Assembly (NCBI GenBank): GCA_944393195.1
Contig: CALXZG010000004.1
Coordinates: 5,028-69,027, forward strand
Reading direction: 5' to 3'
Origin: an uncultured Alphaproteobacteria bacterium
Lineage (GTDB): Bacteria; Pseudomonadota; Alphaproteobacteria; CAAHEQ01; UBA3637
Length of the DNA: 64,000 nt
Both the position numbers and the translations under genes were made by a program. Below the pieces are notes generated by a model. It was given only the letters and a program-made list of their open reading frames with translations, had not been told where the DNA came from and did no database searches. Positions 6,949 to 43,738 of this stretch are shown piece after piece (the first letter of the stretch is position 1; each line of letters opens with the position of its first letter).

Positions 6949-6978
6949 AAGAGGGAGCGCAGCTTCCTCTTTTTTTTT
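6949..6978 (+). terminator. Intrinsic terminator after lpxC
   Basis: Stem gagggag/cttcctc (one G-U pair), 5-nt loop, followed by a run of 9 T. Confidence 0.7.
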
Positions 6979-7070
6979 AAAGAAAAAAGATTTTCTTTTT
7001 AAAAGAATGTTTGACTTGCGGGATAAAGAATGTTATTTTGACAGAAAAGATGGCCATGAAAGGGTATAAC

Positions 7071-7568
7071 ATGAAACAGATATTTGTTGTTGTTATCGGA
7101 TTGATGTTGTTGGGGGGATGTGCTTCGTCTGTGACGGAAAACCGGGAAAGTCGGTCGACGGTATACGAGGGGCAGACAACGTGGGATTTGTATGAAAATT
7201 TCGGTGTGCCGAGTCGGGCATTACAAACCGGACCGAACGAGTTTCAGTTTTATTATCATAAAGAGGCCATTACGCGTGATTGGACGCGGATGTATTATGA
7301 TTATTGCGATACGGTTTTTGTGGTGGTGGATGATCGTGTCGTGGATTGGGATCAAACGGGTAATCAATGTTATATCAATGTAGCCGAAGGTGTTCGGGAT
7401 ACAAGCGGCCGTTTGACCGAGGAAGAGGACAAGGGTTACTATGATGAAACGGCGGTCGAGGATGGTTATGATGCGGATGAATCAATGTCCGAAAATGATT
7501 ATTATGTGAATGAAAGACGTAATCGGCAGCCGACTGTTTCGGAGTATGATACACCGACGTTGTTTTAA
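7071..7568 (+). CDS. Small lipoprotein, unknown function (paralog of 7666..8034)
   Basis: Signal peptide with lipobox MKQIFVVVIGLMLLGGCASS. Shares the C-terminal block VFVVVDDRVVDWDQTGNQC with its neighbour. Acidic D/E/Y-rich tail. Confidence 0.6.
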   Translation: MKQIFVVVIGLMLLGGCASSVTENRESRSTVYEGQTTWDLYENFGVPSRALQTGPNEFQFYYHKEAITRDWTRMYYDYCDTVFVVVDDRVVDWDQTGNQCYINVAEGVRDTSGRLTEEEDKGYYDETAVEDGYDADESMSENDYYVNERRNRQPTVSEYDTPTLF

Positions 7569-7589
7569 CCGGTAAACAATCTGTATTTC

Positions 7590-7615
7590 AGGCGGGGAGA
7601 CCCGCCTTTTGTTTA
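7590..7615 (+). terminator. Intrinsic terminator
   Basis: ggcggg-gaga-cccgcc hairpin followed by ttttgttt. Confidence 0.65.
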
Positions 7616-7665
7616 TCTTGTGATTTTAGGGAAATCCCTTATATGAAAAACAGGGAGGGGTTTTC

Positions 7666-13391: not shown

Positions 13392-15262
13392 GTGGTACAA
13401 AAAAGGCAGAAAGGCGGTCACATGAAACAGGAAACAGGCGTATCGACTAAACGAAAGCGGAAGTTGGATGTGGTGGTGGAAAGTGTTGAGCCTTTGAACG
13501 AGGCGCAACAAGATAAGCTTTATCAGAAATTAAAGCAGGCTTTTCCCTATCATGCCGTTCAGATGAAGTTGGCATTAAATCCGGATTTATTGGGGGGAAT
13601 TTCCGTTAAAATGGGATCCATGTTGTTGGATGGCTCTATTCGGGGACAGTTGCGGCAATTTCAACGTGAAATCGAATCGTATCGGGCTCCGGTATCGAAT
13701 ATACAGGGATTGACCGATCTGTTTACCGAAAAAATTGCTTCTTTTCAAGGGCGACCGGTTTTAACCGAAGTCGGGGAAGTTGTTTCTGTATCGGATGGAG
13801 TGGCCAAGGTGACAGGCCTGCAATCTTTGGCGGCCGGTGAACAGGTTGTGTTTGCTTCGGGGGCAGTGGGAATGGCTTTGAACCTGAACCCGGAGGATGC
13901 GGATGTGGCGGTTTTTGAAAAGGCCGATACGATTCGGGAGGGTGATCATGCGTATCGAACGGGGCGTGCGAACACGGTTCCGGTCGGCGTGTCTTTGGTT
14001 GGGCGTGTTATCAATCCGTTGGGACAGCCGTTGGATGATAAGGCCCCTTTGGATCAATTGGAACAACGTCCCGTCAACGTGCCGGCACCCGGGATTGTTG
14101 ATCGTGAAAGTGTGCGACGGCCGGTTCAGACGGGAATTAAGGCGATTGATGCTCTGGTACCGATCGGATGCGGTCAGCGTGAATTAATCATCGGGGATCG
14201 CCAGACGGGAAAGACAACATTAATTATCGATACGATTATCAGTCAACGTTCCCATAATGAAAAGAGCATCGGTTTAAAAGATAAAATTTTTTGTGTTTAT
14301 GTGGCAATAGGGCAAAAGCAATCGACGGTTCGGGAGGTTATGCGAACGCTGCAAAAATATGGAGCAATGGATTACACGGTTATTGTGTCGGCAACGGCTT
14401 CGGACAGTGCCGTGATGCAATATTTGGCCCCGTATGCGGGATGTGCGGTCGGGGAATATTTTCGGGATAACGGAATGCATGCGATTGTCTTTTATGATGA
14501 TTTAAGTAAGCATGCGGTGGCCTATCGGGAAATGTCTTTGTTATTGAAACGACCGTCGGGACGAGAGGCTTTTCCGGGGGATGTTTTTTATTTACATTCA
14601 CGGTTATTGGAGCGGGCGGCCCAGATGAGTACGGAAAAAGGGGGCGGATCATTGACGGCAATTCCGGTTGTGGAAACGCAGGAGGGGGATGTGTCGGCCT
14701 ATATTCCGACGAATGTTATTTCGATTACAGACGGGCAGATTTTTTTGGAAAGTACGTTATTCCATCAAGGTGTCCGGCCGGCCGTCAATGTCGGGTTGTC
14801 GGTCAGTCGTGTCGGTTCAGCGGCTCAGGCACCGGCCATGAAAAAAGTATCGGCATCGTTAAAGTTGGAGTTGGCGCAATATCGTGAGGTGTTGACGTTT
14901 GCGCAGTTATCATCCGATTTGGATACGGCTACACAGGCGTTATTGGCGCGGGGTGCGCGGTTAACGGAAGTCATGAAGCAAAAGCCGTATCGGCCGTTGA
15001 CAATGGCGCAGGAGGTTGTATCTTTATTTGTCGGAACGCATGGCTTTTTGGATGATATTGAGGTTCCCGAGATTACCGTCTTTCTGCAAGGGCTTTTGGA
15101 TCGGTTACGGTTACAGGGGGCGGATATATTGGCCGATATAGAAAAAAGCGGTGCGTTAACGGATGAAACGGCGAATCGGTTGACGGCTTTTGTTCAAAAA
15201 TACGGTGAATCGTATCGGGCACAGGCGGAAATGGCGGCGGATGATCAGGCGGGACAGGCGGC

Positions 15263-15266
<4 letters not shown>
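13392..15266 (+). CDS. atpA: F1 ATP synthase alpha subunit with an N-terminal fusion of a delta (OSCP) C-terminal segment
   Basis: Residues ~25-95 (LDVVVESVEPLNEAQQ...LNPDLLGGISVKMGSMLLDGSIRGQLRQF) parallel the C-terminal ~70 aa of bacterial delta. From ~aa 100 onward it is canonical alpha (VSVSDGVAKVTGL, Walker A GDRQTGKTT). An alternative ATG start lies at 13422. Confidence 0.85.
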
Positions 15267-18211
<2,945 letters not shown>

Positions 18212-18334
18212 CGGGTTATGGTTGTTCGTCTGATTGATGTAAATGGGTTGGTCGGCGGCGGTATAGTACATCATGGGGCGACGACCGGCAGCAAAGAGGA
18301 CGGGGGTATGCCGTCGATCGTCGGGCGTCAATAA

Positions 18335-18535
18335 TCAGGCGTTGGCGGGTTTCGCATTACCGACATTTAACGCCAGGATATCAATTCCTTTTTTGATGGT
18401 GGATAAGACGGTGTCGTCTTTTTTCGTCGGGGTCAGAGCGCTGAGAGCACTGGCACCGCTGATAATCGATGAAATGGCAATTAAGATATCGTTCCAGGAT
18501 GAGATGATAAAATCCAGCATGGTGTTTCCTTTCAT
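18335..18535 (-). CDS. Small phage membrane protein (holin/lysis accessory candidate)
   Basis: 66 aa with one TM (ILIAISSIISGASALSAL) followed by TPTKKDD, a pattern I associate with small phage membrane proteins. Overlaps the upstream gene stop. Confidence 0.45.
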   Translation of the reverse strand: MKGNTMLDFIISSWNDILIAISSIISGASALSALTPTKKDDTVLSTIKKGIDILALNVGNAKPANA

Positions 18536-18837
18536 TTTAAAATTAAGTTAAAAAAAGCGGCACTGAGAGCCGTTACGGTTGTCAGGGCAATCATCCCCGC
18601 AACGGCTTTAATCGGTGCCAATTCCGACCGCGGCATATATTCTTTGGCCAGACGATCGTGAATGGTTTGACAGGTGCTTTTATGTTGGACACTTCCCATG
18701 AAATTTAATAATTCTTCATGCACGTCGGCAATTTGTTTTTTGCTTTGGGAAATATCCTTTTTAATTTCGGTCAATTGTTTTTGCAGGGTTTCAACCTGTC
18801 CCATCAATTTACCGATTTCCATGACAAGTGTCGGCAT
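18532..18837 (-). CDS. Phage lysis-module protein, coiled-coil with C-terminal TM (holin/spanin-like candidate)
   Basis: 101 aa. N-terminal coiled-coil text and a C-terminal TM (AVAGMIALTTVTALSAAFFNLIL). Sits directly downstream of the endolysin. Confidence 0.4.
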   Translation of the reverse strand: MPTLVMEIGKLMGQVETLQKQLTEIKKDISQSKKQIADVHEELLNFMGSVQHKSTCQTIHDRLAKEYMPRSELAPIKAVAGMIALTTVTALSAAFFNLILK

Positions 18838-18847
18838 GAGTCCTCCT

Positions 18848-19258
18848 TTATAAACAGGTATAAAATAAACGATTCCCGATTTGTGCGCAGGGAATCAAGG
18901 CCGAGGCCCAGCGCGGATTCGTATCCAAAGAATGATAGTGTGTTGCGCCTTTGACCGTATCCGGCAGCAAGCCTTTAACAGCGCGGGTGGCGACGCGGCG
19001 GCAAATGGCAAAAACGGCATCGGAGGACAAATCAGCCGTCATTAATTGTCGGGTCGCTTCGGCCGTTTTCCAACACGAAAACTGAAACGGTTTTCGGCAG
19101 ACTTCCGATATGGTGGTACCCAGCCCGGCGGTTTGTCCGCTTCGGGTATATCGGATACGGTTCATAATGACGGAGGCGACGGCTTCAATACCGGGTAAGC
19201 CTTCATCATGAGCCTCTCCGTACAAGGTGCGGGCTAAAATATTTGTTTCGTAATCCAT
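18848..19258 (-). CDS. Cell wall hydrolase, SleB/Hydrolase_2-type (phage endolysin)
   Basis: ARTLYGEAHDEGLPGIEAVASVIMNR motif characteristic of the SleB-like hydrolase family. Confidence 0.75.
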   Translation of the reverse strand: MDYETNILARTLYGEAHDEGLPGIEAVASVIMNRIRYTRSGQTAGLGTTISEVCRKPFQFSCWKTAEATRQLMTADLSSDAVFAICRRVATRAVKGLLPDTVKGATHYHSLDTNPRWASALIPCAQIGNRLFYTCL

Positions 19259-19259
19259 G

Positions 19260-20672
19260 TTAGAATCTCCATTCCAAATGTTGTTTAACGGGGTGGGTGG
19301 CCATTCGTTTTAAGCGAACGGGTTCGCACAATAAACAGCCGGCTAAGGCATCCAGACCGTCATCATGTGTATTGCCGGCGATGGTAAAATCCGTCATTTC
19401 CTGTAATAACGGTGTTTGTTTCAGGGCGGATCGGATAAACAGGCTGCCGTTCATCAGGGGTGCGTCGAGGGCGGATAGAATCCGGCGAGCTTTGTTTTGG
19501 CGGGCGGTTTCTTCAATGACGGCACAGGCTGTGCGGGTTCGGGCCAGTTCCTGACGCAACAGGGCGGGCAGAAATTTACCGATTCCGTTGGTTTCCAAAT
19601 GAATGGCCGGAACGAAGCAGTCGGTAATCAACTCCCGAACGCGGGCGCATTGCCAGGCTGTTGCTTCCTGTCCCGACGGAACGGTTAGGTAATCCAGTCG
19701 GTGTAGGTAAATATTGCCTTCGTCATCAAAAAAGGTACAGGCAACAACGCTTTTGTCCCCGTCGGGTGATCCGAAAGCCGGATCCCACCAACAAGATACG
19801 CCGCGCATTTGTTTGTCGTTCAGGGTCAGAATGCCTTGTCCGTTGGCCTCCCGATAGGACAGATCGCCGCTGTAATAGCGCAGGCGATTGATATCCAATC
19901 GCGTGTCGCCAAGGGAAACGGGTTCCAGCATCATTTGACTGCGGAATTTATTCGGACCGGAGCGTTGGCGGAGCGCTTGGATACGGTTCAGGTTGAATCG
20001 TTCCGGCCAATTGGATTGCCCGTCGGGTGTCAGCAGCGGAAGGCGCAAGGTTGGCCAGTCGGCTAAAAATCCGTCCGGAGCGGATTGATAAATCGTATCC
20101 GCCGCATGGGGTGTTCCGATATACAGTATCAGGCCGCCCGGTGTCAGAATATAATCCAGTTCGGATAATTTTTGGCGCAGATCCCGCCGTTTTTTGGGGG
20201 TGTCGCATGTTTTGGGAACTTCGACATCATCGCACAGGATAATATCGGCACGGCAGCCGGTCATATTGGCGGTCAAACCGCGCGCCAAAACGGACGGATC
20301 GCGCATACCGCCGGTTCGTCGGACGGTAAAGCGGTCAGAGGCCCATTCTTCGGGCGTGTCCGGTTTCAGGCGTTGTGTCAACGGGTGGCGTTCAATAATT
20401 TGTTTAATGTGGTGAACCATTTTTTTAGCCAGCATGTGGTCGGCCGATAAGATCAAAATCCGAGTATCGGGATGTGTATACAAAAGCCATGCCCCGAACA
20501 AGCCGACCAGTGTGGATTTGCCCGAGTTCCGGAATGCCATCAATAAACCGCGCCGATGATCGGGGTGATCGTGAATGGCCTGTAAAAAACGGGCTATTCG
20601 AATATGATGGCGGGGTAGGGAGAGGCCTTGAATCTGATCCCAAATCCAAATAAATTCAATCAAAGAAAGCAT
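19260..20672 (-). CDS. terL: Phage terminase large subunit
   Basis: Walker A-like FRNSGKSTLV, Walker B ILCDDVE, and a C-terminal RNaseH-like nuclease text (WWDPAFGSPDGDKS, HLETNGIG, DDGLDAL). Confidence 0.8.
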   Translation of the reverse strand: MLSLIEFIWIWDQIQGLSLPRHHIRIARFLQAIHDHPDHRRGLLMAFRNSGKSTLVGLFGAWLLYTHPDTRILILSADHMLAKKMVHHIKQIIERHPLTQRLKPDTPEEWASDRFTVRRTGGMRDPSVLARGLTANMTGCRADIILCDDVEVPKTCDTPKKRRDLRQKLSELDYILTPGGLILYIGTPHAADTIYQSAPDGFLADWPTLRLPLLTPDGQSNWPERFNLNRIQALRQRSGPNKFRSQMMLEPVSLGDTRLDINRLRYYSGDLSYREANGQGILTLNDKQMRGVSCWWDPAFGSPDGDKSVVACTFFDDEGNIYLHRLDYLTVPSGQEATAWQCARVRELITDCFVPAIHLETNGIGKFLPALLRQELARTRTACAVIEETARQNKARRILSALDAPLMNGSLFIRSALKQTPLLQEMTDFTIAGNTHDDGLDALAGCLLCEPVRLKRMATHPVKQHLEWRF

Positions 20673-20964
20673 TGTCGGTCCATTCCTCGGTCGGTAATTG
20701 TTTCAGGGCATCACGGGCTTTGCTCAGCCAATCGATAGCGGTATCGTTTGTTTTATCTTTGGATAAGCGGGGTGTTGTTTGTATCAGCTTGACCAACAAA
20801 GCAATATGCAGTAAGGCCGATTTACAGGCATTATGCCAAGCCGTAAAGCCTTTGGCATCGGTCGGGATGTCGCCCTGTTCAAATGTTTGATAAGAAGACA
20901 GGGCGCGTTGTAAGTCCCGAACCAAATGTTCAGATAAGTCCGGAAAAGTGGGATTATCTGACAT
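20656..20964 (-). CDS. Small phage protein in terminase-small-subunit position
   Basis: 102 aa. Overlaps the terL start by 17 nt. Same position as gp18 in T7-like genomes. No motif recognised. Confidence 0.3.
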   Translation of the reverse strand: MSDNPTFPDLSEHLVRDLQRALSSYQTFEQGDIPTDAKGFTAWHNACKSALLHIALLVKLIQTTPRLSKDKTNDTAIDWLSKARDALKQLPTEEWTDNAFFD

Positions 20965-20973
20965 GGGTATCTC

Positions 20974-21450
20974 CTATTTGATCATGGTTCGGCCGGCTTG
21001 TGTTCCCAAAGAGGTCAATGTATCGAACGCATTGGCGGTTTGTTTGTTGCGTAATTCCTGCATTTTGAGCAGGTTCAGGGTGTTATTTTTGTTAATGCCG
21101 TTCAATAACGATTCCAAAGAAATATTGGCTTGTTCCACCAAATATTTATCTTCGATATCGTGTTCGCGTTGCATATTGTCCAAGACCGCCTGAGCGGAAC
21201 CGGATTGACTGCTCATACCGCCGGCACCAAGCCGTGCTTTATAGGCCGATTGTTGTTGTGCCAACAGGTTACGGTTTTTGCGTTGTTGTTGTTCCAATGC
21301 CAATTTTGTTTGGGCAACGTTCAAATCGTATTCTTTTTGGGCGGCGGCTTTGGCGGCTTTGGCCTGTTTTTTTTGATTGTCGATTGATTTTTTGGTATAA
21401 AAGGCCGAACTGACAAGTGAGACGGCTGCGATGATTGGGGCTGCTTCCAT
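20974..21450 (-). CDS. Phage Q/A/K-rich coiled-coil protein with N-terminal hydrophobic segment (internal virion protein candidate)
   Basis: N-terminal MEAAPIIAAVSLVSSAF then a long Q/K/A-rich helix. Sits after the gp12-like gene, where T7 encodes gp13/gp14. Confidence 0.3.
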   Translation of the reverse strand: MEAAPIIAAVSLVSSAFYTKKSIDNQKKQAKAAKAAAQKEYDLNVAQTKLALEQQQRKNRNLLAQQQSAYKARLGAGGMSSQSGSAQAVLDNMQREHDIEDKYLVEQANISLESLLNGINKNNTLNLLKMQELRNKQTANAFDTLTSLGTQAGRTMIK

Positions 21451-21451
21451 A

Positions 21452-23371
21452 TTATCCTCCTATTTGTATATCACTGGTGACACTGACAAGTTTAAATGGT
21501 TTGGGGGTATCCCCTTGAATACGCCACAAGGGTTGAACCGGTGATCTGTTCCAACCGAGTGAGCGTACGACAATATCCGTTGTTTTGGTTTCGGGAATGC
21601 TGTCCAGTTTGTATGAGGCCAGCGGGCGGGTCATTTCTTGGTGTAAGCCGGTGCCGGTATCGATTTCCAACGATGCGGTATCGACGACACGGAAAGAGGC
21701 TTTGACAAGGCGTGCCGACGAAACGGGAGCTGCCCCGTTGCTGGCTCCGACAAGAGGCGGCAGCGGGATGACGATGTGTGTGTAGGCCAACCCGACTTCA
21801 ACCGTTGTTGCCGGATAATCCAGTGTGATTTGTCCGTTCGTCACGATTTTATCCGGTACGGTAATGTTATCCGCCGTTATTTTAACGGTGCGGCCTTCCA
21901 ACATATCCAAGCCCGAAAAGACCGTTTGCGGCGTATCGGTCGTTAAACGGACGGCACAATCGGTGTGATAGTCTTCATTCAACTGTTCCAGAAAGAACGT
22001 GTCGTCGCGGCGAATCAAAAAGTATGTTTTTGTACCGCTGACGGCAACGGATGTGAACAGGCCGTCGGTATACATACGCGTCCAACTTTGCAGGTCTTCG
22101 GAACGAAAACTTGTCAAAACGCTGATGGTGCCGTCGGCCATGATGATATACGCTTTACGATTTTGTTTGTCGTAGGCTTGATCAATCGGTGTGTTGATCA
22201 GATGACCGGCCAACAGAGATAGGTCGGTTGCCTGATACGCTTGTTCGATATCGGCAAATAAAAATTCGCGGATTTCGTGACCGTTGGCGGCCGGAAAAAT
22301 AGTGGCTCCGTCGATACCGACAGGCGGGACAAAGCGGGTATCCGTTGAACCGACCTGCGTTTGTCTTTTTAACTGAATATTGCTTGGCGTCAGGGGATCG
22401 CCGGAAACCATCCACTCGGCACTTGTCGTAAAAACCTGTAAGTGGCGGCCGGCAAACAGAGCGCAAATCGCGTTGGATTGGTCCGACAGGATGTTAAAAT
22501 CAATCCCTTCGGCATCGTATCCCGATCCTAATTCAAAATTGGAAAGGTCTCCGCTTTGACTGAACCACAGGCGATTCGGGAGTGATGCGCTCCCGCCGAA
22601 AACCAGACGGGATTGATAAAACGCGACGCAGGTCGGCCAACCGTAATCGTCGTCAAAGGCGGGTTCTCCCCAACTGCGTGTCGGTTCCAATTTTGTGCTG
22701 TCATCGCCGTCGGTAATCAATTGTTTTAAGACGGTTCCCGTGGCTTCTTTGGCACTGTTAATTGTTTCGATTTCAACGTATCCGTCCCCGATTTTAAATT
22801 GCCGCCCGATATGTTTTTCCTTAAAAACGTCGGATGAGGCGGTTAAGGTTACGGATCCGCCGAGACCGGAAGAGGCGATTGTTGTTTCATCGCTGCTGAA
22901 TTTATGGTACGGTTGTCGAATACATTTATCTTCGGTCAGGAAAACAAATGCGGACAGGGACCATCCGTCACTCGTTTTTACCAATTTTTGCGGGGCAACA
23001 TTGGGGTGTGTCAAATACAGGGCGTCGGTTCCTTGTGCCCACCGAACGGCGTTGATTTGGTCAGAGGACCAAGGGGATTTCAACGTTGTGATAAGGGTTG
23101 CATCCTGATAAATCAACAATTTTTTATCTTGTAAAATAACAAGGTAGGCATCCGATGAACTTTGTTCGTAGGCGATTAAACGACCTCCGTCGGGAATGGT
23201 TGTCAGGTATTTCAAACCGGGGCGGCGATAAATGCCGCCGGTGGGTTGAATAAATACGTTTTGAAGTGCCAAGGCGCCGTTGTTATAGGACACCAAATCG
23301 ACACGGCCGAGTAAATCATGTGACAATTCACCGGCCGTAAAATTTGTTTTGGTTGTAAACAGGTTTGTCAT
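21452..23371 (-). CDS. Large phage tail protein (tail tubular protein B/nozzle-like by position)
   Basis: 639 aa, beta-rich. ATGA overlap with the upstream gp11-like gene. Position equivalent to T7 gp12. Confidence 0.5.
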   Translation of the reverse strand: MTNLFTTKTNFTAGELSHDLLGRVDLVSYNNGALALQNVFIQPTGGIYRRPGLKYLTTIPDGGRLIAYEQSSSDAYLVILQDKKLLIYQDATLITTLKSPWSSDQINAVRWAQGTDALYLTHPNVAPQKLVKTSDGWSLSAFVFLTEDKCIRQPYHKFSSDETTIASSGLGGSVTLTASSDVFKEKHIGRQFKIGDGYVEIETINSAKEATGTVLKQLITDGDDSTKLEPTRSWGEPAFDDDYGWPTCVAFYQSRLVFGGSASLPNRLWFSQSGDLSNFELGSGYDAEGIDFNILSDQSNAICALFAGRHLQVFTTSAEWMVSGDPLTPSNIQLKRQTQVGSTDTRFVPPVGIDGATIFPAANGHEIREFLFADIEQAYQATDLSLLAGHLINTPIDQAYDKQNRKAYIIMADGTISVLTSFRSEDLQSWTRMYTDGLFTSVAVSGTKTYFLIRRDDTFFLEQLNEDYHTDCAVRLTTDTPQTVFSGLDMLEGRTVKITADNITVPDKIVTNGQITLDYPATTVEVGLAYTHIVIPLPPLVGASNGAAPVSSARLVKASFRVVDTASLEIDTGTGLHQEMTRPLASYKLDSIPETKTTDIVVRSLGWNRSPVQPLWRIQGDTPKPFKLVSVTSDIQIGG

Positions 23372-23937
23372 GAACGTACCTCAATCAAAGAGAAATCTTG
23401 AAATGCCCGGGGGATAATTTGTTGACTGTCGATTAAGCGTGCTGTTTTCAGGTCTTCTTCGGCTATTTTGCGCAAATAATCGGTTCGGGTTGTACTTTCC
23501 GTCAACGGTAGGCAGAATTCGGCGGCCAGACGGCTGATAAGGGCTTGCGTAAAAAAGGGCGGAAAGGTGGATTCATCCGGTCGGGCAATATATGTCAGGA
23601 TGACATTTTCCTGATTACAATGCAGTTGGTTTTGAAATAGGCGGTAGATAAGGCCGCTGCTCCTGACCGATGAACCGGCGGATAAAATACGGACACAGTC
23701 TTTGGGAAGAGCGTACGCGTATTGATATTCGGTGGCCGGTGTGGTTGCCAATCGGGCCAATGATACCTGTGATAATGCAAAACGCCAGGGGTATGAGGCC
23801 AACAATGCGTTAAGTGTCGGATCGTACAGTTGTTCCGCGATGTGGGCTTCGGTGGTTTCTTCCTCAAATGAAGAAATGCTGTCAGCCCCTAATTTGACTA
23901 AGGCCCGAGAACAAAGGCCGGTAGCTGTAAAAGTCAT
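23368..23937 (-). CDS. Tail tubular protein A / head-tail adaptor (T7 gp11-like)
   Basis: 189 aa. The N-terminal pattern ALVKLGADSISSFEE...LNALLASYPWRFAL parallels T7 gp11 ILASIGEPPVSTLEG...IQSRGWTFN (from memory). Correct size and position. Confidence 0.55.
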   Translation of the reverse strand: MTFTATGLCSRALVKLGADSISSFEEETTEAHIAEQLYDPTLNALLASYPWRFALSQVSLARLATTPATEYQYAYALPKDCVRILSAGSSVRSSGLIYRLFQNQLHCNQENVILTYIARPDESTFPPFFTQALISRLAAEFCLPLTESTTRTDYLRKIAEEDLKTARLIDSQQIIPRAFQDFSLIEVRS

Positions 23938-23954
23938 GTCAAATACTCCTGTTT

Positions 23955-23990
23955 AAAAAAGAAAAGAAGAGGGACGGCGAACCGTCCCCC
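23955..23990 (-). terminator. Intrinsic terminator immediately downstream of the capsid gene
   Basis: gggacgg-cgaa-ccgtccc hairpin. On the minus strand it is followed by a T-rich run (tcttcttttctttttt). Confidence 0.6.
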
Positions 23991-24013
23991 GCTAAACGCA
24001 TGATCGTCGGATA

Positions 24014-24859
24014 TTAAGCCGTCATTGCCGTGTCCAAACATTCCATTTTGACGACACCTTTATCATCGATTAAGCAAGCGCCCTGACTCATCATATTACT
24101 GACAAAGTGGGCGGCGTAATCTCCGTGCCATGAAATATCCGTTTTGATGTCTTGACCACAGGCATGGCCGACGGCTGTTTTGTGATAGATAAAGCATGTG
24201 TGTGTGGTATCCGTTTTCGGTAAGCCCGTGTGCATGATCCACACAATGCCCATCCATTTCCGGCTTTCGGAACCGGTCAACATCGGGTATGTTTCACCGA
24301 CATAATTGGCGGACGAAAATTCTTCAATGGACAACAATTGATTCCATTGCGCCGGGGAAACAAGGGCGTAGCGTTCCCCGTCATCCGGTACATCGTTGTT
24401 GTTTAACAGAGTAAAGGCTTCTAAAATACGGGATTTTGTTAACGGTTCCGTCGATTCTCCGACCGTTTGCGTGGCCGTTTTTAACGCGTCGATAATCAAT
24501 TCATCCGTTTTGCGACCGAGTGCGTAAGCCCCGGCGGCGGCCAAAGCTTTCCGTTCATCGTGGCCGGTCTTCAATTCATCCAACGAATCGACCCATTCAC
24601 CGGCGTAGTAATCGGTCAGCGAGCATTCGACCGGCACGTGCGTGACACTGGACGGTGTGATTTGTTGATTCCGCGTTTTAGTTTGTGCGGACATGGCACC
24701 GATGACTTGGAATGTCGTGGAGGCACCTTTAACGTTGTTTTTCGAGCGAACCGTATTTTTTAATTTAGACCCTTGTTGTTGATAGGCGGTATGGACATCC
24801 GCTTCAAAATGTTTCATAAAAGAAGCGCTAATCGTTGTATTTTCTGTTTCTGTAGACAT
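24014..24859 (-). CDS. Major capsid protein candidate
   Basis: 281 aa. Sits after the scaffold-like gene and is preceded by a strong RBS (aaaggaat). Followed by a terminator, as with T7 gene 10. No family motif recalled with certainty. Confidence 0.55.
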   Translation of the reverse strand: MSTETENTTISASFMKHFEADVHTAYQQQGSKLKNTVRSKNNVKGASTTFQVIGAMSAQTKTRNQQITPSSVTHVPVECSLTDYYAGEWVDSLDELKTGHDERKALAAAGAYALGRKTDELIIDALKTATQTVGESTEPLTKSRILEAFTLLNNNDVPDDGERYALVSPAQWNQLLSIEEFSSANYVGETYPMLTGSESRKWMGIVWIMHTGLPKTDTTHTCFIYHKTAVGHACGQDIKTDISWHGDYAAHFVSNMMSQGACLIDDKGVVKMECLDTAMTA

Positions 24860-25004
24860 GTATATTCCTTTCTGTCAATATGGTGATTAAGAAAAAGGGG
24901 TGGACGGTTCCAGAAATTTTCTGCCGTTATACCCCCGTTGGGAATCGATAGATTCCCAGGTGGTATCGGGTAGGCCCAAAGGGTTATCTGCCGATGGAAA
25001 GAGT

Positions 25005-25739
25005 TTAACCGTAGAGGCGTTTAAAGCCGTTTTCGATACGTTTCGTCAGTTCGGGATCCTGATATTTCCAATATTTCGGATCTTGCATAAGGCGCCGTAA
25101 AACTTCCTCGCTGTCGGGCGGGGTGGCTTCCCGACGGGAAGGCAAAACATCGGCTTCGCGGCGACCGTTCATCATACGGTATAAGGCCATAATCCCGTCT
25201 TTATGGGAGGCAAGCAGGTCGAAAACGGATTTGTCCAGATTCTTTTCTCCCCAAGCCGATATTTGACGGGCAATGGTATTGAACTGTTCCGGTCCGCCGA
25301 ATTCCTGTTCCAATGCTTGTAAATCCCGTTCGGCCTGATAATCCATGGAAAGGGATTGCAATATCGGAATGATTTTTTCGGCAGCCAGATCATAAATGCC
25401 TTGAACCTGTTCGTTGGTACAACCCAGATCGAACAACCGTTGGTTAACATCCGCATCAATTTTCATCAGGTTGTTGGGCAGGGTAATTTGGTATTCTGCC
25501 GGAGAAGCCGGGCGATCGGCTATCGGTTGAACGGATGGGCGGGTACTCATTTTCTTTTCCAGGGCCAGATACGACTTAACCAAGTCAGCCCAGTTGACAT
25601 CACCCGTTTCAGGATTGATGAATTTATCAGGAACCATATCCAAGACAGCGGCGAGATTTTGGGCAGCAGAAGTTTCATTGTCAGCCTCCGGTTGATAAGC
25701 GTTTTCGTTTTTTTGAGTCATTTGATTTTTGGGATTCAT
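25005..25739 (-). CDS. Scaffolding protein candidate
   Basis: Start set at ATG 25739 (RBS aaaggaaat upstream). Acidic, helical, 244 aa, between portal and capsid. The longer ORF to 26015 overlaps two upstream genes and is rejected. Confidence 0.5.
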   Translation of the reverse strand: MNPKNQMTQKNENAYQPEADNETSAAQNLAAVLDMVPDKFINPETGDVNWADLVKSYLALEKKMSTRPSVQPIADRPASPAEYQITLPNNLMKIDADVNQRLFDLGCTNEQVQGIYDLAAEKIIPILQSLSMDYQAERDLQALEQEFGGPEQFNTIARQISAWGEKNLDKSVFDLLASHKDGIMALYRMMNGRREADVLPSRREATPPDSEEVLRRLMQDPKYWKYQDPELTKRIENGFKRLYG

Positions 25740-25741
25740 GA

Positions 25742-25939
25742 TTATTTCCTTTCTTGTTGACCTTGTTGAATCAGGTTGAGTATTTGGTTGACCAAAGCAC
25801 GTTGGCCTTCCAAAAAGCGTAGTTCGGCATCGGTTGCGTCCGGCATCAGAACGCGTTCCATTGTTCGGTGTTTCAGCCAGGCGATAACCTCCGCTCCTTC
25901 GGGGCGGCCGAACAATCGGGCAAAGGCGGCGGGAATCAT
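25742..25939 (-). CDS. Small phage protein, unknown function
   Basis: 65 aa. ATGA overlap with the portal stop, and its own stop lies 2 nt before the scaffold start. Confidence 0.4.
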   Translation of the reverse strand: MIPAAFARLFGRPEGAEVIAWLKHRTMERVLMPDATDAELRFLEGQRALVNQILNLIQQGQQERK

Positions 25940-27426
25940 CGGCCGACTCCTTGCAAGGCGGGCAATATCGATGTGTTGAGCGGAACAGCCTCACGGATGA
26001 TATTTTCCGGTACATTGAGTTTACACCCCAGCCATTTTACAAAGCCGCCGATGTCGACATGTTGCAGGCCGGCTTCCCCCAATTTTATGATGGATGACAG
26101 CCACAAGAGGGCGTTGTTGGCGTCAATTTGCGCCTGCTTTTCCGCCCGTGTGGATTTATAGCTGACTTTTAATAATCGGCCATCTACAAAAATTTCGGGA
26201 ATTTCACCACGCTTACGCAGTAAATTGACGGCTCTTTCAATCAGAGGCATTAAAAGCTCTGTTTGCAGGCGGCCGTACGTCGCCCCCAAAATTCGCATCA
26301 TTTCATCCGATCTTTCCAGAACTTCGGTCGCCGTCATGTTGGGGGATTTAATTTCGCCCAGACGATCGCCCAACAAGGCATGTTGAATGCGTTTGCGCAA
26401 ATCTTCGATCATCAGTTGCGAAACATCAAACTTGCCGGGGGCTTCCAATGGCGTTAAGCCTTTGGATCCCATGGCTTTCGGAATGATGGCGCCCGGGGTT
26501 AGGTGAATGTTTGCCGGATTCAAAACCCCGTCATCTTCCGCCAACCAAATACCGGTAACGGCAATGGAGGCATTTTTCAGAATCAGCTCGACAACTTTAT
26601 TGGCGGTTTTAATGTCGGGCAATGCTTTCATGACGGGGGAACGGCCATAGACCTCCCCGGGTGCTTTGAGCCAGCGGAACGAAATAAACGGTGAGGTTTC
26701 GAAAAAAGCCTCTTTTAACACGCTATCCGTGCCGTTTAGGGAATCATGCTGGCTATCGGGATGCAGAAATGCCGTGTAGGTATAGCCACCTTTCGGGGCG
26801 GGAGTGACGGCTTCAATAACGGTGACGGTTTTGTCCTGTGTCGGTTTGTCTTTTTCCGGTATGGTCGCTTGCGGGAAACGGGCGCGCAAGGTATCGGTAT
26901 CCATTTGCGATTCACGGAACGTTGTATCTAAACGACCGGAAGGACCTTCCGCCAAATATACTTCGGATAACGGAATCGCCGTAAAGCGAAAGGCCGACGG
27001 GGCGCCGAGAGGGGCCTCTTCAAACAACAAACAGGCTGTTCCGGCCGTGATTAAATCCAAATAACATTGATGTACTTCCAAAGCGAAGTTGGATCGGTCA
27101 AAGTTAGTTTGCAGTGCTTCGGAAATGGTGTTGAGCGTCGGTGCGATTTGGTCGCTTTCTTCGGCAGATAAATCACTCCCGGCCGTTAATTGAAACCACC
27201 GCATCCAAGGCGGTGTCATTTCCGATAAAATCAGAGCAGCTAATTGATCGACGCTGTCCGGTGCTGTACCGTCGAACAAATGGTCAATCGGTGAATGCGT
27301 CGGGTTAAACATACTTTCCCGATGCGGCAACGCGTATTCATAGCATTCCTGCCATGGTGTTTCCCAGCCGCTACGTGCCGATTTGGCTTTTTGAAAGCGG
27401 TGGTACAGAGTTTGAATATCCGTCAT
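25936..27426 (-). CDS. Portal (head-to-tail connector) protein, T7 gp8-like
   Basis: 496 aa. The N-terminal text LYHRFQKAKSARSGWETPWQECYEYALPHRE resembles the podovirus head-tail connector family as I remember it. First gene of the structural block. Confidence 0.65.
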   Translation of the reverse strand: MTDIQTLYHRFQKAKSARSGWETPWQECYEYALPHRESMFNPTHSPIDHLFDGTAPDSVDQLAALILSEMTPPWMRWFQLTAGSDLSAEESDQIAPTLNTISEALQTNFDRSNFALEVHQCYLDLITAGTACLLFEEAPLGAPSAFRFTAIPLSEVYLAEGPSGRLDTTFRESQMDTDTLRARFPQATIPEKDKPTQDKTVTVIEAVTPAPKGGYTYTAFLHPDSQHDSLNGTDSVLKEAFFETSPFISFRWLKAPGEVYGRSPVMKALPDIKTANKVVELILKNASIAVTGIWLAEDDGVLNPANIHLTPGAIIPKAMGSKGLTPLEAPGKFDVSQLMIEDLRKRIQHALLGDRLGEIKSPNMTATEVLERSDEMMRILGATYGRLQTELLMPLIERAVNLLRKRGEIPEIFVDGRLLKVSYKSTRAEKQAQIDANNALLWLSSIIKLGEAGLQHVDIGGFVKWLGCKLNVPENIIREAVPLNTSILPALQGVGR

Positions 27427-27462
27427 GGAGTCTCCTTTAATAAAAATAAACCGAAGGCTAAC

Positions 27463-27495
27463 AACAAAAAAACAGGCCCCGTTGCAGGAGCCTGT
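27463..27495 (-). terminator. Intrinsic terminator between the two early-position genes and the portal gene
   Basis: 9-bp stem (acaggcccc/ggagcctgt, one mismatch) with a 6-nt loop. The minus-strand RNA would end in tttttttgttgtt. Confidence 0.5.
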
Positions 27496-27558
27496 CTGAC
27501 AGAAGATACACTTCCGGTTGTTAACTGAAAATCAATATAGCATACTTTTTTTGAAATG

Positions 27559-27978
27559 TCAAGGATTATTTTCCTTTTTTAGGTTTAAAAATCGAAAAAG
27601 TTGATAAGGAGTCCAAATTCCGGCCCGATTAATGCCTAAAAAACGTTTGACGGTTTCGACGCATGTATAGGGACGGAATTGGGTGTTTGTCAAAGGCGGT
27701 TGCGTGGGTGTCGTTCGGACAAGGCGATAGCCTTTTTGACGTAAAATATCCAAAACGGGTGCGTTTTTCATCATAATTAAATCCGTGAAATGAATCAGCG
27801 GATCAATCAAAAGCCATTCATGTCCATTGCCGATAATTAAGGCACAATGATAGAATCCTTTTTTTAAAAAACGCATCCACCAACGGGTTCGGGTACCGCC
27901 GAAGGCAACGTAAGCAAACGGATAGCGATAGCCGTGTGAAAGTGTTTCCTTCATTCGTTTTTCCTTTGTGTTTTTCAA
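27559..27978 (-). CDS. Hypothetical protein of the phage-like element
   Basis: 139 aa with a conserved-looking core (FYHCALIIGNGHEWLLIDP ... YTCVETVKRFLGI). No family recognised. Confidence 0.35.
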   Translation of the reverse strand: MKNTKEKRMKETLSHGYRYPFAYVAFGGTRTRWWMRFLKKGFYHCALIIGNGHEWLLIDPLIHFTDLIMMKNAPVLDILRQKGYRLVRTTPTQPPLTNTQFRPYTCVETVKRFLGINRAGIWTPYQLFRFLNLKKENNP

Positions 27979-27982
27979 ATGA

Positions 27983-28342
27983 TTAAATTAATCTGACAAT
28001 TCCTTTTTGCCGAAGAATTATGTCCAGAAACCCCATGGCTTCATGCCATAATTCGCAGATGCGGCGGCTGGCGCCGAAATGCGGATGAGGTGGGGCTTGT
28101 TCCGCCCCGTATCGTTGTAAAATACGCATATGATCAGGGTTAATTTTTCCTTTGTTTAATAATTTTTTGACAGCGATAATGATATCTGACGATTCGCAGG
28201 GGCGGGCAATATTCGAATCGCCGCCACGGGCGCGCAAATGGCCCAATTGTTCACATAAACAATACCAGAACCAAGCTTCCTCAGATGATTCAAAAGGCGT
28301 TGTTTCGCGGTTGTCCGTTTGCGTTTGGTATTTATTCCTCAT
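27983..28342 (-). CDS. Hypothetical regulator-position protein of the phage-like element
   Basis: 119 aa. Strong RBS aaaggaggagg. First gene, divergent from the repressor. INPDHMRILQRYG is vaguely sigma-region-4/HTH-like. Confidence 0.3.
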   Translation of the reverse strand: MRNKYQTQTDNRETTPFESSEEAWFWYCLCEQLGHLRARGGDSNIARPCESSDIIIAVKKLLNKGKINPDHMRILQRYGAEQAPPHPHFGASRRICELWHEAMGFLDIILRQKGIVRLI

Positions 28343-28433
28343 AACCTCCTCCTTTCGTCTATAAAATGAAGAACAAAGTAAGAACTAATCTAAAATAAAG
28401 CGTCTGTCAACTAAAAATATGAAAAAAAACCTA

Positions 28434-28462
28434 TTGACAGGATAAAAAGGATATGGTATAGA
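28434..28462 (+). promoter_or_regulatory. Sigma70-type promoter for the repressor gene
   Basis: TTGACA (28434-28439), 17-nt spacer, TATAGA (28457-28462). A reverse-strand TTGACA lies at 28404-28409, giving a divergent layout. Confidence 0.55.
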
Positions 28463-28549
28463 GATGTACAACTAAAAGGCGCATATCTATGTATGTTAGG
28501 CGGCATTCTTTTTTGTTGCGGCGGAATGTTTGAAAAGAAAGGAAAAACA

Positions 28550-29185
28550 ATGCAATTAACATATTCTGAAATTTGGACGGGGATAGAGAAGCTGGCGGAA
28601 AGTAAGGGGTTGTCGTTATCGGCTTTGGCGGTAAAAGCGGGTTTGGATCCTACCAGCTTTAACAAATCCAAACGAATCGGGGCCGACGGGCGAAAGCGGT
28701 GGCCGTCAACAGAAAGTATGAATAAAGTTTTGCAGGCAACGAACACAACTATTTTCGAATTTATGGAGTTGGCCGGTGAACCGTATCGTCCCAAAGCACA
28801 AGTTATTCCGTTGTTGGGTTTGGCTCAGGCCGGTCGGGACGGCTATTTTGACAGCGATGGGTATCCGTTGGGGACCGAAGCGTGGGACGGTATTGAATTT
28901 CCTTTTTCTTTAAATATGCCTGTGTATGCTTTGGAGGTGTCGGGAAACAGTATGGAACCGGCCTATCGGGACGGGGATAAATTGGTCGTTTCTCCGGATT
29001 CGGAAATTCGCAAAGGGGATCGGGTGGTTGTTAAGTTATGTTCCGGGGAAGTTATGGTGAAAGAGTTGCAATATCAATCTGCCCGACAATTGGAGTTAAA
29101 ATCGTTAAATCCGTTACATGCGGATATTTCGTTACAACGGTCGGAAGTGGTTTGGATGGCGCGTGTGATTTGGGTCAGTCAATAG
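28550..29185 (+). CDS. CI/LexA-type repressor: N-terminal HTH plus C-terminal S24 peptidase domain
   Basis: Start at ATG 28550 (RBS aaaggaaaaa). HTH-like LSLSALAVKAGLDPTSFNKSKR. S24 motifs VSGNSMEPAYRDGDKLVV and VVKL. Confidence 0.8.
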   Translation: MQLTYSEIWTGIEKLAESKGLSLSALAVKAGLDPTSFNKSKRIGADGRKRWPSTESMNKVLQATNTTIFEFMELAGEPYRPKAQVIPLLGLAQAGRDGYFDSDGYPLGTEAWDGIEFPFSLNMPVYALEVSGNSMEPAYRDGDKLVVSPDSEIRKGDRVVVKLCSGEVMVKELQYQSARQLELKSLNPLHADISLQRSEVVWMARVIWVSQ

Positions 29186-29201
29186 TTGGGGTTGAAAGCA
29201 G

Positions 29202-30320
29202 ATGAAAAAACGCATATGGTTCGGTGTGGGGGCAATATTCGTCCTTGTATTGATTGTTGGTTTAGGCTTTGTTTTTATGCGACGGCCGATGATATCGGTT
29301 GTCATGGCGACATATAATCGGGCGGATACTTTTTTGCCGCGGGCGATTGAATCAATCCTATCCCAGACGTATGATGATTTTGAATTTATCATTATTAATG
29401 ACGGGTCAACGGATGGGACCGCCGATGTTTTGGCCGATTATGCCGCCCGGGATGACCGTATCAAGATAATCACAAATTCCCCGAATCAGGGATTAATTGC
29501 CAGTTTGAACAAAGGGTTGGCTGCGGCTCGGGGAAAATATATTGCCCGAATGGATGACGATGATGAATCCTATCCGAATCGTTTTGAACGGCAAGTTGCC
29601 TATTTGGAGGCGCATCCCGACATCACGGTGGCGGGAGCGTGGGTTAGTCCGCCGGGACGTTCGCGGCCGTATTCTTTTCAACGTGAAACGGATCCCGAAC
29701 GGGTCAAAATTCAATTATATTTGGGAATAGCGCCGGTTTGTCATCCGGTATTGATGATGCGGCGTGATTTTTTACGGCAGCATGATATTTGGTATCGGGA
29801 TGATTATCCGGCCGCCGAAGATCGGCCGTTTTACGGGGATATTTTAAATGCCGGCGGTGCCATTGCCAATATTCCGGAGGTTTTATTGTATTATCGATTG
29901 CATGGAAGTAATAATCGTCAATATTATTCCAATCAGACGAAAAATGTCCGGCGTTTTCATGCCGCGTTTATCAATCGCTTTTTCCCCTTTTCCATTGACG
30001 ATACTTTTCGTAAGTGCGATTTATTGCCGCGTATGATTGAAGCAAATAAAGTCAAAGGCATTGTCGATCAGCAAAAACTATCGGATATGTACTTTGAATT
30101 ATGCGGGTTGCCGGCGGAACGACAGATACAATTGAGCCATCCTTTTTGGCAGGATATCGTTGCGGTGAATAACGGGCGGGTTCGTCGGTCGGCTCAGAAA
30201 GGGGAGTTTGGTCATATCATTCGGGAAACGGAAGATGTGCTGACAATTAAATGGGATAATTGGGGGAATGAAACATTTGTTCGGAATGGTGACGGCGTGT
30301 ATGTATTGCAGGGGGAATAG
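29202..30320 (+). CDS. Family 2 glycosyltransferase with N-terminal TM and extra C-terminal domain
   Basis: ISVVMATYNRADTF...IIINDGSTDGT...ARMDDDDES (GT2 DxD region). Confidence 0.8.
   Translation: MKKRIWFGVGAIFVLVLIVGLGFVFMRRPMISVVMATYNRADTFLPRAIESILSQTYDDFEFIIINDGSTDGTADVLADYAARDDRIKIITNSPNQGLIASLNKGLAAARGKYIARMDDDDESYPNRFERQVAYLEAHPDITVAGAWVSPPGRSRPYSFQRETDPERVKIQLYLGIAPVCHPVLMMRRDFLRQHDIWYRDDYPAAEDRPFYGDILNAGGAIANIPEVLLYYRLHGSNNRQYYSNQTKNVRRFHAAFINRFFPFSIDDTFRKCDLLPRMIEANKVKGIVDQQKLSDMYFELCGLPAERQIQLSHPFWQDIVAVNNGRVRRSAQKGEFGHIIRETEDVLTIKWDNWGNETFVRNGDGVYVLQGE

Positions 30321-43662: not shown

Positions 43663-43738
<76 letters not shown>

Follow-up and report, generated by a model that had tools for sequence, protein, structure and literature searches.

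A conserved T7-like head, terminase and lysis cassette of gut and rumen Alphaproteobacteria as a candidate domesticated, gene-transfer-agent-like element

What keeps a set of phage structural genes intact in a bacterial chromosome, when genes for phage replication and integration are missing, is the question raised by a 64-kb stretch of contig CALXZG010000004.1 from an uncultured Alphaproteobacteria bacterium (hereafter, the window). A preliminary description of this DNA had claimed 14 intact, co-directional open reading frames (ORFs) at 18335-28342, resembling head, packaging and lysis genes of phage T7, and had proposed that they form a domesticated particle or a gene transfer agent (GTA)-like system. 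Comparisons with related loci, host genes and phages indicate that the cassette is very likely domesticated. Judging from sequence, it is probably what a temperate podophage, T7-like and of the HTVC010P/YeP4 type, has left in the chromosome, inherited vertically, maintained as one unit by purifying selection and with a GTA-like role. The earlier proposal is thus supported by conservation, selection and co-divergence with host genes, and the GTA role itself is a prediction.

All 14 ORFs were recovered intact on the minus strand when their coordinates were rechecked, and searches with hidden Markov models (HMMs) from Pfam, PHROG and NCBIfam bore out the identities suggested for the portal, scaffold, capsid, gp11, gp12, large terminase (TerL) and endolysin genes. 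An S24 repressor gene (28550-29185) and a conserved control region of 207 bp, which were absent from the preliminary description, are also parts of the module, and its span is therefore approximately 18335-29185. The module and its 14 genes are listed below in the order of transcription, with protein lengths in amino acids (aa).

~18335-29185: whole module, including the S24 repressor and the control region
27983..28342, minus strand: g1, 119 aa, first early gene, specific to the element family of this cassette
27559..27954, minus strand: g2, 131 aa, with invariant His36 and Cys98, conserved in all loci
25936..27426, minus strand: portal protein of the T7 gp8 type, 496 aa (PF12236, E 1.7e-124; phrog_332)
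25742..25939, minus strand: Bbp19-like small protein, 65 aa (PF25181, E 5.8e-14)
25005..25739, minus strand: scaffolding protein of the T7 gp9 type, 244 aa (PF05396, E 8.7e-8, exceeding the gathering score)
24014..24859, minus strand: major capsid protein, 281 aa (PF19821, E 2.7e-72; phrog_3437)
23368..23937, minus strand: gp11-like tail tubular protein A (adaptor), 189 aa (phrog_394, E 4e-49)
21452..23371, minus strand: gp12-like tail tubular protein B (nozzle), 639 aa (phrog_376, E 1e-130; PF25675 Phage_nozzle on homologues)
20974..21450, minus strand: g9, 158 aa, hydrophobic at its N-terminus, Q-rich coiled coil
20656..20964, minus strand: g10, 102 aa, overlapping the TerL gene by 17 nt (phrog_31793, function unknown, E 4e-15)
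19260..20672, minus strand: TerL of the T7 gp19 type, 470 aa (NCBIfam termin_lrg_T7 equivalog, 385 bits against a cutoff of 150, E 6e-115; phrog_38)
18848..19258, minus strand: endolysin of the SleB/Hydrolase_2 type, 136 aa (PF07486, E 4.9e-16; phrog_938 endolysin)
18335..18837, minus strand: membrane proteins g13 (101 aa, coiled coil and C-terminal transmembrane segment) and g14 (61-66 aa, one transmembrane segment)

The head parts lack a prohead protease, having a T7 scaffold instead, and no tail tube was identified by HMM annotation; the nozzle is ~30% identical to tail tubular protein B of a pelagiphage and a Yersinia phage. Both g13 and g14 have one hydrophobic helix each (hydropathy maxima of 1.93 and 1.89) and are kept in all loci, g14 matches phrog_9685, and the two are probably holin or lysis accessories. 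The tight packing of the genes held for ten junctions, which measure -17 to +10 nt and include the ATGA overlaps at 23368-23371 and 25936-25939 and the 17-nt overlap at 20656-20672 exactly as first given, but three junctions are longer, i.e., 132 nt between g2 and the portal gene, 145 nt between scaffold and capsid and 76 nt between capsid and gp11. The first and the last of these contain conserved or terminator-like regulatory elements.

Genes for fibre, ejection, replication and integration had been said to be missing, and none was recognizable in the cassette by HMM annotation; likewise, no fibre or ejection-protein homologue was found in the window, in which not every ORF was annotated. 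Among 50,697 phage records, the nearest phages were HTVC010P-type pelagiphages, Yersinia YeP4-6 and Acinetobacter, Alcaligenes and Vibrio podophages, all of them less than 34% identical (~26-34%). The order portal, small protein, scaffold, capsid, adaptor, nozzle and ~150-aa protein is the same in HTVC010P-type, YeP4-6 and Vibrio 1.138.O phages; in addition, YeP5 shares the divergent repressor and Vibrio phages share a g2 homologue beside the portal gene. In YeP5, HTVC203P and Vibrio phage 1.138.O, which also carry replication genes, the nozzle gene is followed by one or two genes for ~150-aa proteins and then by genes for three large internal/ejection proteins (~7-8 kb), after which a fibre is annotated in HTVC203P. 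Since the nozzle gene of the window precedes only g9, g10 and TerL, what the cassette retains of such a phage is the part for head, adaptor, nozzle, terminase and lysis. Complete podophages differ from it in their length (31-35 kb) and in their three large internal/ejection proteins, fibres and primase/replication genes, whereas in the cassette TerL has moved to a position after the tail genes. By comparison with Autographiviridae and T7-like phages, which have their own RNA polymerase, replication genes, gp14-16 and gp17, the cassette is limited to equivalents of gp8-12 and gp18-19; none of the former was recognizable in it, in its flanks or in the window. A tblastn search with family fibres and the large internal proteins of three complete phages gave no match in the window or in ~96 related loci; because tblastn is a weak test for such fast-evolving proteins, the length of the gap between gp12 and TerL was also used, and this gap was shorter than 5.1 kb in 52 of 56 loci.

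Close relatives were identified by a scan of one genome per species, which found the cassette in 12 other species (13 loci with the window), all of them uncultured Alphaproteobacteria represented by metagenome-assembled genomes (MAGs) from human gut and rumen, with nozzle identities of 57-86%. All 14 genes and the repressor were colinear in 12 of 12 loci, as far as the contigs reach, and all cassette ORFs were intact in the 13 loci with the exception of the gp12-like gene of locus L007. Host genes were found on both sides at every locus. The flanks given for the window, atpC on one side and GT2 and lnt on the other, hold in the window, but the atp operon adjoins the cassette only there and in the three closest relatives (L001-L003). 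The lnt gene flanks six loci and GT2 is also among the flanks; other loci have LepA, MurJ or MacB/FtsX, and in L006-L010 the flank is a type IV-pilus-like cluster (T2SSF, T2SSE, PilO and secretin). A constant place next to atpC, which had been proposed as a mark of domestication, is therefore kept only in close relatives, whereas gene order is kept in all loci. Two cases that had been named beforehand as speaking against domestication did not occur: in the 12 related species, with host genes on both sides, the cassette was never the edge of a larger prophage, and decayed copies were not seen, the genes being intact apart from one in-frame stop.

Ratios of nonsynonymous to synonymous substitution (dN/dS), the check that the preliminary description had called for, were 0.02-0.2 for each of the 14 genes, with dN values of 0.03-0.4 and with dS saturated (>1 or not computable) in nearly all comparisons. 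These ratios are in the range of those of atpA, atpG, atpD and lnt. The capsid gene evolves most slowly in the cassette, with 73-91% identity across species and dN of 0.03-0.11. That the cassette is a functionless, decaying prophage remnant which has not yet been deleted would account for the loss of most of the phage genome and for the in-frame stop in gp12 of L007. However, 14 colinear ORFs that have remained intact in 13 species at dS above 1, bar that one gene, with dN/dS this low and with non-coding regulatory elements conserved too, make a functionless remnant very improbable.

Comparisons of the cassette with host genes cover the 4-6 taxa that have host markers. Neighbour-joining trees of the concatenated cassette and of lnt had an identical topology for six taxa (r 0.80), and distances in atp genes and in the cassette were nearly 1:1 (0.126 vs 0.134, 0.203 vs 0.154 and 0.35 vs 0.35). 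The relative synonymous codon usage (RSCU) of the cassette correlated with that of host genes on the same strand at r 0.94 and with that of host genes on the opposite strand at r 0.41. A comparison that took no account of strand (r 0.58) made the codon usage look foreign; the strand-matched r of 0.94 shows this to be an artefact, produced by a strand bias that is extreme in this genome. Plus-strand genes of the window have third-position frequencies of 0.365 for G and 0.130 for C, and minus-strand genes of the same region have 0.18-0.21 for G and 0.31 for C; as codon usage follows strand more than origin, naive codon-usage tests for foreign DNA fail here. Co-divergence with lnt and the atp genes and strand-matched codon usage therefore indicate long chromosomal residence and, taken together with intactness, flanks and selection, exclude a recent acquisition.

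These data also bear on whether the cassette could be a capsid-forming satellite that packages itself, relies on a helper phage for fibre, ejection and replication, and spreads horizontally. Capsid-forming phage-inducible chromosomal islands (cf-PICIs) are likewise small, chromosomal and non-autonomous, with their own capsid, portal and terminase; head, portal and terminase genes are present in the cassette and fibre, ejection and replication genes are not, a CI-like repressor is found in many satellites, and chromosomal neighbours vary among more distant relatives. By contrast, cf-PICIs have integrases, att sites and replication modules and by definition take helper tails, whereas adaptor and nozzle genes are part of the cassette. 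An integrase, an excisionase, replication genes, att repeats and a tRNA target were looked for and not found; at the cassette there is no tRNA gene nearby and there are no bracketing att-like direct repeats. Taking into consideration also the co-divergence with lnt and atp genes, the host-strand codon usage and the identity of less than 34% to the closest phages in the 50,697 records, a satellite is improbable, if less so than a functionless remnant.

The cassette belongs to a wider family in the Rhodospirillales. At 55-99% identity, a protein search with the nozzle matched more than 100 clusters (built at 90% identity), whose members all came from MAGs of Alphaproteobacteria; a second tier followed at 46-52%. 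In a marine MAG of this second tier, the S24, g1, g2 and portal-to-nozzle genes are followed by genes for proteins of 184 aa, 441 aa (fibre-like) and 115 aa and then by those for a g10 homologue and TerL, and dapD and dapE flank the S24 side. A Magnetovibrio contig carries genes for the adaptor and nozzle, for proteins of 143 aa and 891 aa (the latter a fibre with a faint PF03906 match), for TerL and Hydrolase_2 and for PF11351 GTA_holin_3TM, beyond which lie methylmalonyl-CoA mutase and gcrA; in members of the wider family, the PF11351 gene takes the position of g13/g14. A scan of IMG/VR with the nozzle alignment identified 491 relatives, and the same module was found in the 80 loci that were fetched from these. 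Family cassettes are labelled as proviruses in IMG/VR, and many of these labelled stretches are 12-18 kb long, running from S24 to the lysis genes. The hosts, assigned by exact-sequence look-up, are many Azospirillum species, Magnetospira QH-2, Magnetovibrio, Caenispirillum, Skermanella and marine Rhodospirillaceae; in cultured Azospirillum and Magnetospira the elements lie on chromosome-sized contigs of 2.7-4.0 Mb, with Azospirillum copies mostly on contigs of 2.7-3.1 Mb.

Such contigs argue against the cassette being part of an active temperate phage whose remainder lies elsewhere or was lost by misassembly. Most of the contigs are from MAGs, in which misassembly is possible; however, the same boundaries and host flanks recur in many independent assemblies, and the chromosome-sized contigs of cultured strains carry provirus predictions of only 12-18 kb. 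An active phage is thus the explanation to which we would give the least credence.

Elements of the wider family are 12-17 kb long and have retained a tail-fibre gene. Their fibres have a common N-terminal adaptor domain (phrog_1640 and tail fibre/spike PHROGs) and variable C-termini, and the fibre gene is placed before TerL, after TerL or after the lysis genes. Large ejection proteins were not recognizable in the wider family with queries from three reference phages, and the apparent loss of the ejectosome is therefore common to the whole family, whereas loss of the fibre from the cassette appears, from the loci compared, to be confined to the gut clade and a small number of further loci. A receptor-binding fibre of the gut clade, if any, would be encoded elsewhere, because it is absent from the cassette. 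In Azospirillum sp. OGB3 (L072, 4871-7216), a 781-aa HAMP-PAS-GGDEF-EAL protein and a 213-aa ORF are encoded between scaffold and capsid, so that the phage-derived operon here contains a c-di-GMP gene of host type, and a scaffold-capsid gap is also present in L064, L075, L076 and L081. A comparative study of Azospirillum has reported a conserved "phage-related lysozyme" in an otherwise "non-phage" context, which may be this cassette, overlooked.

How such a cassette could be expressed was addressed through its non-coding sequence, in which the following features were identified together with the repressor.

28550..29185, plus strand: S24/CI-like repressor, 211 aa, extensible to 28493 (Peptidase_S24, E 6e-22; phrog_4 repressor, E 2e-28)
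28343..28549, unstranded: divergent control region, 207 bp, between the S24 gene and g1
28434-28439 and 28457-28462, plus strand: repressor promoter, TTGACA, 17-nt spacer and TATAGA
28410-28405 and 28387-28382, minus strand: early (g1) promoter, -35 TTGACA, 17-nt spacer and -10 TAGTTC
28385-28371: SOS-type box GTTCTTACTTTGTTC (GTTC-N7-GTTC), overlapping the -10 and +1 of the early promoter
27460..27562, minus strand: late control element upstream of the portal gene
27562-27534, minus strand: late promoter with near-consensus extended -10, TTGACA, 17-nt spacer and TGcTATATT (scan score 11/12 plus TG)
27497-27470, minus strand: intrinsic terminator hairpin and T-run after the late promoter
23969..23990, minus strand: terminator-like hairpin and T-run directly after the capsid gene, 9-bp stem with 7 GC pairs

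The divergent S24 repressor gene is present in every locus that reaches that end, at 72-85% identity, and in the wider family as well, and is the most conserved partner of the cassette. With the NCBIfam model for LexA it scored 33 bits, below the cutoff of 111, and it was rejected as an equivalog of LexA on this basis. In an alignment of 11 loci, the intergenic region between S24 and g1 was better conserved than much of the coding sequence, and its promoter blocks were invariant. The GTTC-N7-GTTC box at the early promoter is the sole copy in the 64 kb and is invariant in 10 of the 11 close loci; moreover, 11 of 17 distant loci have the same motif or its reverse complement in the corresponding position, within otherwise unrelated sequence, as compared to a chance expectation that we calculated as ~0.008 per 250 bp. 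The SOS box of Caulobacter is GTTCN7GTTC (PMC9578287), so that the early box matches an alphaproteobacterial SOS (LexA) operator and is a predicted site for LexA or the S24 repressor. In the S24-g1 regions of four Azospirillum loci (L064, L072, L062 and L081), a palindrome, GAAC-N4-GTTC (GTGAACATGTGTTCGC), replaces the direct repeat and is nearer to the Bacillus-type SOS box than to the Caulobacter-type direct repeat. In the human-gut MAG locus L004, a 1.7-kb insertion (3392-5105) lies between the S24 repressor and g1 and would split the shared control region; it has ORFs of 90, 95 and 275 aa, the last without a Pfam or PHROG match.

The late promoter and ~25 nt of its transcribed leader are invariant in 12 loci, whereas the terminator hairpin that follows is kept across loci in structure and T-run but not in sequence. 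A terminator-like hairpin likewise precedes the portal gene in L016; in the GC-rich Azospirillum version, a simple scan did not confirm a late promoter and terminator. The last codons of g2 (KKENNP and the stop) overlap an invariant sequence, AAAAAAGGAAAATAATCCTTGACA (27557-27580), which lies upstream of and includes the late -35, and the constraint here is on DNA rather than protein because g2 of L004 and L005 ends earlier and the DNA is still invariant; this sequence is a putative promoter UP element or factor-binding site. A strong promoter that closely precedes a terminator ahead of a late operon is the lambdoid Q-type layout, and the succession of an early promoter, a late promoter and a conserved terminator suggests, by analogy, that the late genes are controlled by antitermination. 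Control by antitermination is also reported for CcGTA and BaGTA. By analogy with T-phi of T7, the hairpin behind the capsid gene would stop only part of the transcription and thereby raise the stoichiometry of the capsid protein. Rfam yielded nothing relevant in 18000-29500.

Among the small proteins of the cassette, g1 would be the candidate for a regulatory factor. It had no Pfam, PHROG or NCBIfam match and no homologue among the 50,697 phage records, but homologues were found in 467 representatives of 50%-identity clusters at E<=1e-10, and g1 thus appears to be a marker of the element family. Its AlphaFold2 (AF2) model has four helices and a predicted local distance difference test (pLDDT) score of 86; a profile search of PDB was empty, and Foldseek found no significant fold match for the model. 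The best TM-scores, 0.37-0.44 to the Q21 antiterminator (E ~3), and the matches to ~120-aa phage proteins in BFVD (probability 0.8-0.94) were non-significant. As neither g1 nor g2 has a significant structural match, g1 is a weak candidate, based on these models, for a transcription factor or antiterminator.

The likelier start of g2 is the ATG at 27954, which gives 131 aa and corrects the ORF call. It had no Pfam, PHROG, NCBIfam or PDB-profile match, and its AF2 model (pLDDT 83) had no significant Foldseek match. Since a g2 homologue sits between TerL and portal in 49 Vibrio podophages, g2 appears to be an ancestral member of the head module, where it would be a conserved accessory protein. 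An assignment as an LRAT or permuted NlpC/P60 enzyme, based on the His...Cys pair and the "TCVExVKRxLGI" motif, was unsupported, with only non-significant cysteine-peptidase matches. The g9 protein takes the position of the ~150-aa internal virion proteins of complete phages, and its positional equivalents in L015 and L017 had weak matches to the internal-virion PHROGs 418 and 805; g9 itself, for which no match was found in Pfam, PHROG, NCBIfam or PDB profiles, is a probable small internal virion protein in the gp13/gp14 position. The g10 gene is directly upstream of TerL, also in the wider family, and by this position g10 is a candidate small terminase.

A possible course of events, of which SOS induction, antitermination by g1, packaging of host DNA and transfer are inferred, is as follows. 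In the resting state, the early promoter would be repressed by LexA bound to the GTTC-N7-GTTC box, by the S24 repressor, or by both. DNA damage (RecA*) would lift this repression and lead to production of g1 and g2, and transcription from the late promoter after g2 would meet the terminator, where a factor encoded by the cassette, with g1 as the candidate, would permit read-through into the portal-to-lysis genes. Proheads would then assemble and be filled with DNA by the T7-type terminase; this would most likely be host DNA, because the element can neither replicate nor excise. The adaptor and nozzle would close the head, and the endolysin and the two membrane proteins would lyse the producer cell. 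Because large ejection proteins are not recognizable, particles could at most deliver DNA to the periplasm and would then rely on uptake functions of the host. RcGTA releases DNA into the periplasm, from where host machinery imports it, and an ejectosome would not be required for a GTA-like particle that did likewise.

As in GTAs, a structural, packaging and lysis set is present without replication, integration or excision genes, as judged from HMMs and from host flanks at 13 loci, and inheritance is vertical under purifying selection, as judged from dN/dS, RSCU and co-divergence with lnt and atp genes. By the general definition, GTA particles also carry near-random host DNA, in pieces that cannot hold all GTA genes, and bring it to recipient cells; for the cassette, these would be predictions. 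The observations are most economically explained by a GTA-like role because head, terminase and tail genes are under equal selection, replication and excision genes are absent, and the cassette has its own lysis genes and a promoter predicted to be damage-inducible. Several observations weigh against such a role. The L007 gp12-like gene (5716-7641 in this sheep-rumen MAG) has one in-frame stop, at codon 86, which could be a sequencing error or a lineage-specific loss, and the chromosomal position of the cassette is not constant across the clade. In the gut clade, no fibre gene was found in the cassette, its flanks or the 64-kb window, and we know of no fibreless T7-like particle that adsorbs. 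T7-type terminases normally cut specific concatemer junctions, whereas the terminases of known GTAs are of the headful type, and non-specific packaging has therefore to be assumed. In addition, the assignment of g1 as an antiterminator is weak, and purifying selection alone cannot tell a GTA from other uses of a particle.

One such use would be killing of the PBSX or tailocin type, or altruistic lysis and DNA release triggered by damage, with DNA-filled heads as a by-product or as a means of DNA export. The coupling of an SOS-type promoter to a complete lysis module would fit this explanation, and a gut clade lacking a fibre, in a family in which no ejection proteins are recognizable, speaks against efficient delivery of DNA; PBSX also packages host DNA without transferring it (PMC12946183). 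On the other hand, purifying selection is alike strong on portal, TerL, adaptor and nozzle, which indicates that a complete, DNA-containing tailed particle matters beyond lysis, and the wider family keeps variable fibre/tailspike genes that are typical of receptor recognition. We consider a killing or lysis function unlikely, though the best placed of the alternatives, and retain a GTA-like role as the favoured explanation.

More speculatively, and with less confidence than for the GTA-like role of the cassette itself, the loci together could represent an ancient, independently domesticated family of T7-like "podo-GTAs" in Rhodospirillales (all of the genus Azospirillum, as well as Magnetospira, Magnetovibrio, Caenispirillum and Skermanella) and gut/rumen Alphaproteobacteria, fired by the SOS response, controlled by a repressor and then an antiterminator and, after loss of the ejectosome, handing DNA to the uptake machinery of the host, possibly a pilus in the gut clade. 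Pilus-like genes adjoin the cassette in L006 (3-1277), L012 (247-1227) and L011 (18019-19110), and in L006-L010 the end of g14 abuts T2SSF, T2SSE, PilO and secretin genes (e.g., L009, 14964-21862), placing the cassette inside a pilus locus. The window has, at 32379-33644 on the plus strand, a gene whose 421-aa product is of prepilin type at its N-terminus (GRSMVEMIGVLAVAGVLSIGG) and rich in Cys in its C-terminal part, and homologues of this protein are encoded within ~3 kb of the cassette in four other loci. This neighbourhood could reflect a receptor or DNA-uptake link, or merely retained synteny.

Known GTAs differ from the cassette to various degrees. RcGTA-like elements (Rhodogtaviriformidae, including CcGTA) are alphaproteobacterial and vertically inherited under purifying selection, have no replication or integration genes and have some structural genes unlinked; they are regulated by the host and deliver DNA to the periplasm, from which it is taken up by a competence-like route. 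RcGTA is siphovirus-like: its portal, protease and capsid are of the HK97 type, it has genes for a tape measure and a long tail, and its TerL is of the headful type. The cassette, with its portal, scaffold, capsid, adaptor, nozzle and TerL all of the T7 type, is not RcGTA-like because head and tail types differ. For BaGTA (Bartogtaviriformidae), another domesticated alphaproteobacterial element, the literature reports short or absent tails and a TerL clade that includes Sulfitobacter phage pCB2047-C. With this phage as a proxy, the cassette is not BaGTA-like, as none of its proteins had a tblastn match to pCB2047-C with E below 0.03; BaGTA also needs ~29 genes and a run-off replication origin, to which nothing in the cassette is comparable.

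By analogy, the closest functional counterpart appears to be FpGTA of Faecalibacterium prausnitzii, described in 2026 as the first podovirus-like GTA-like element (PMC12946183). It consists of a ~10 kb operon with TerS-like, TerL, portal, scaffold, capsid and short-tail-type proteins, lacks replication and integration genes and is conserved across a genus of gut bacteria, and its fibre, receptor-binding and lysis genes at a second locus provide a precedent for an unlinked fibre (PMC12946183). The two are likened by description rather than by sequence. FpGTA has a Firmicute host, and in the cassette the lysis genes are inside and the structural module is T7-like (PF12236, gp11/gp12 and T7 TerL). 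FpGTA is also known from particles, proteomics and 8.4-8.9 kb of packaged host DNA (PMC12946183), whereas a particle of the cassette is predicted. A podovirus-type cassette, which had been expected to be unusual, is less unprecedented since FpGTA was published (PMC12946183). Full-text literature searches found no published description of this cassette.

Two other features of the window lie outside the module. At 13392-15266 on the plus strand, an ATP synthase alpha subunit with a fused N-terminal OSCP/delta domain is encoded (614-624 aa; Pfam OSCP and ATP-synt_ab), and a long form of this subunit (~620-670 aa) is also present in L001-L003. The stretch from ~41000 to 44000 has a GC content of 0.34-0.41, as compared to ~0.47 elsewhere, contains small unannotated ORFs and lies beside tRNA-Lys (43663-43738), with tRNA-Thr at 46301-46376; possibly, this is a small island of foreign DNA that has no connection with the cassette.

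Few independent domestications of GTAs are known, and what is understood of their mechanism comes almost wholly from siphovirus-like elements of the RcGTA type. To these, a conserved T7-type cassette would contribute a further independent origin, one that packages and delivers by other means, i.e., a T7 terminase, a nozzle in place of a tail tube and no ejectosome, and, if the GTA-like role is true, it would be a new alphaproteobacterial GTA lineage beside RcGTA-like elements and BaGTA and the first of the T7 type. It would test how general the rules of GTAs are, i.e., loss of specific packaging, periplasmic delivery and control by antitermination, and these predictions are directly testable because the family occurs in cultivable, genetically tractable Azospirillum. 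The labelling of these cassettes as proviruses inflates prophage counts. For gut and rumen Alphaproteobacteria, the cassette would be a previously overlooked route by which the SOS response, e.g., upon exposure to antibiotics, triggers the release or exchange of DNA.

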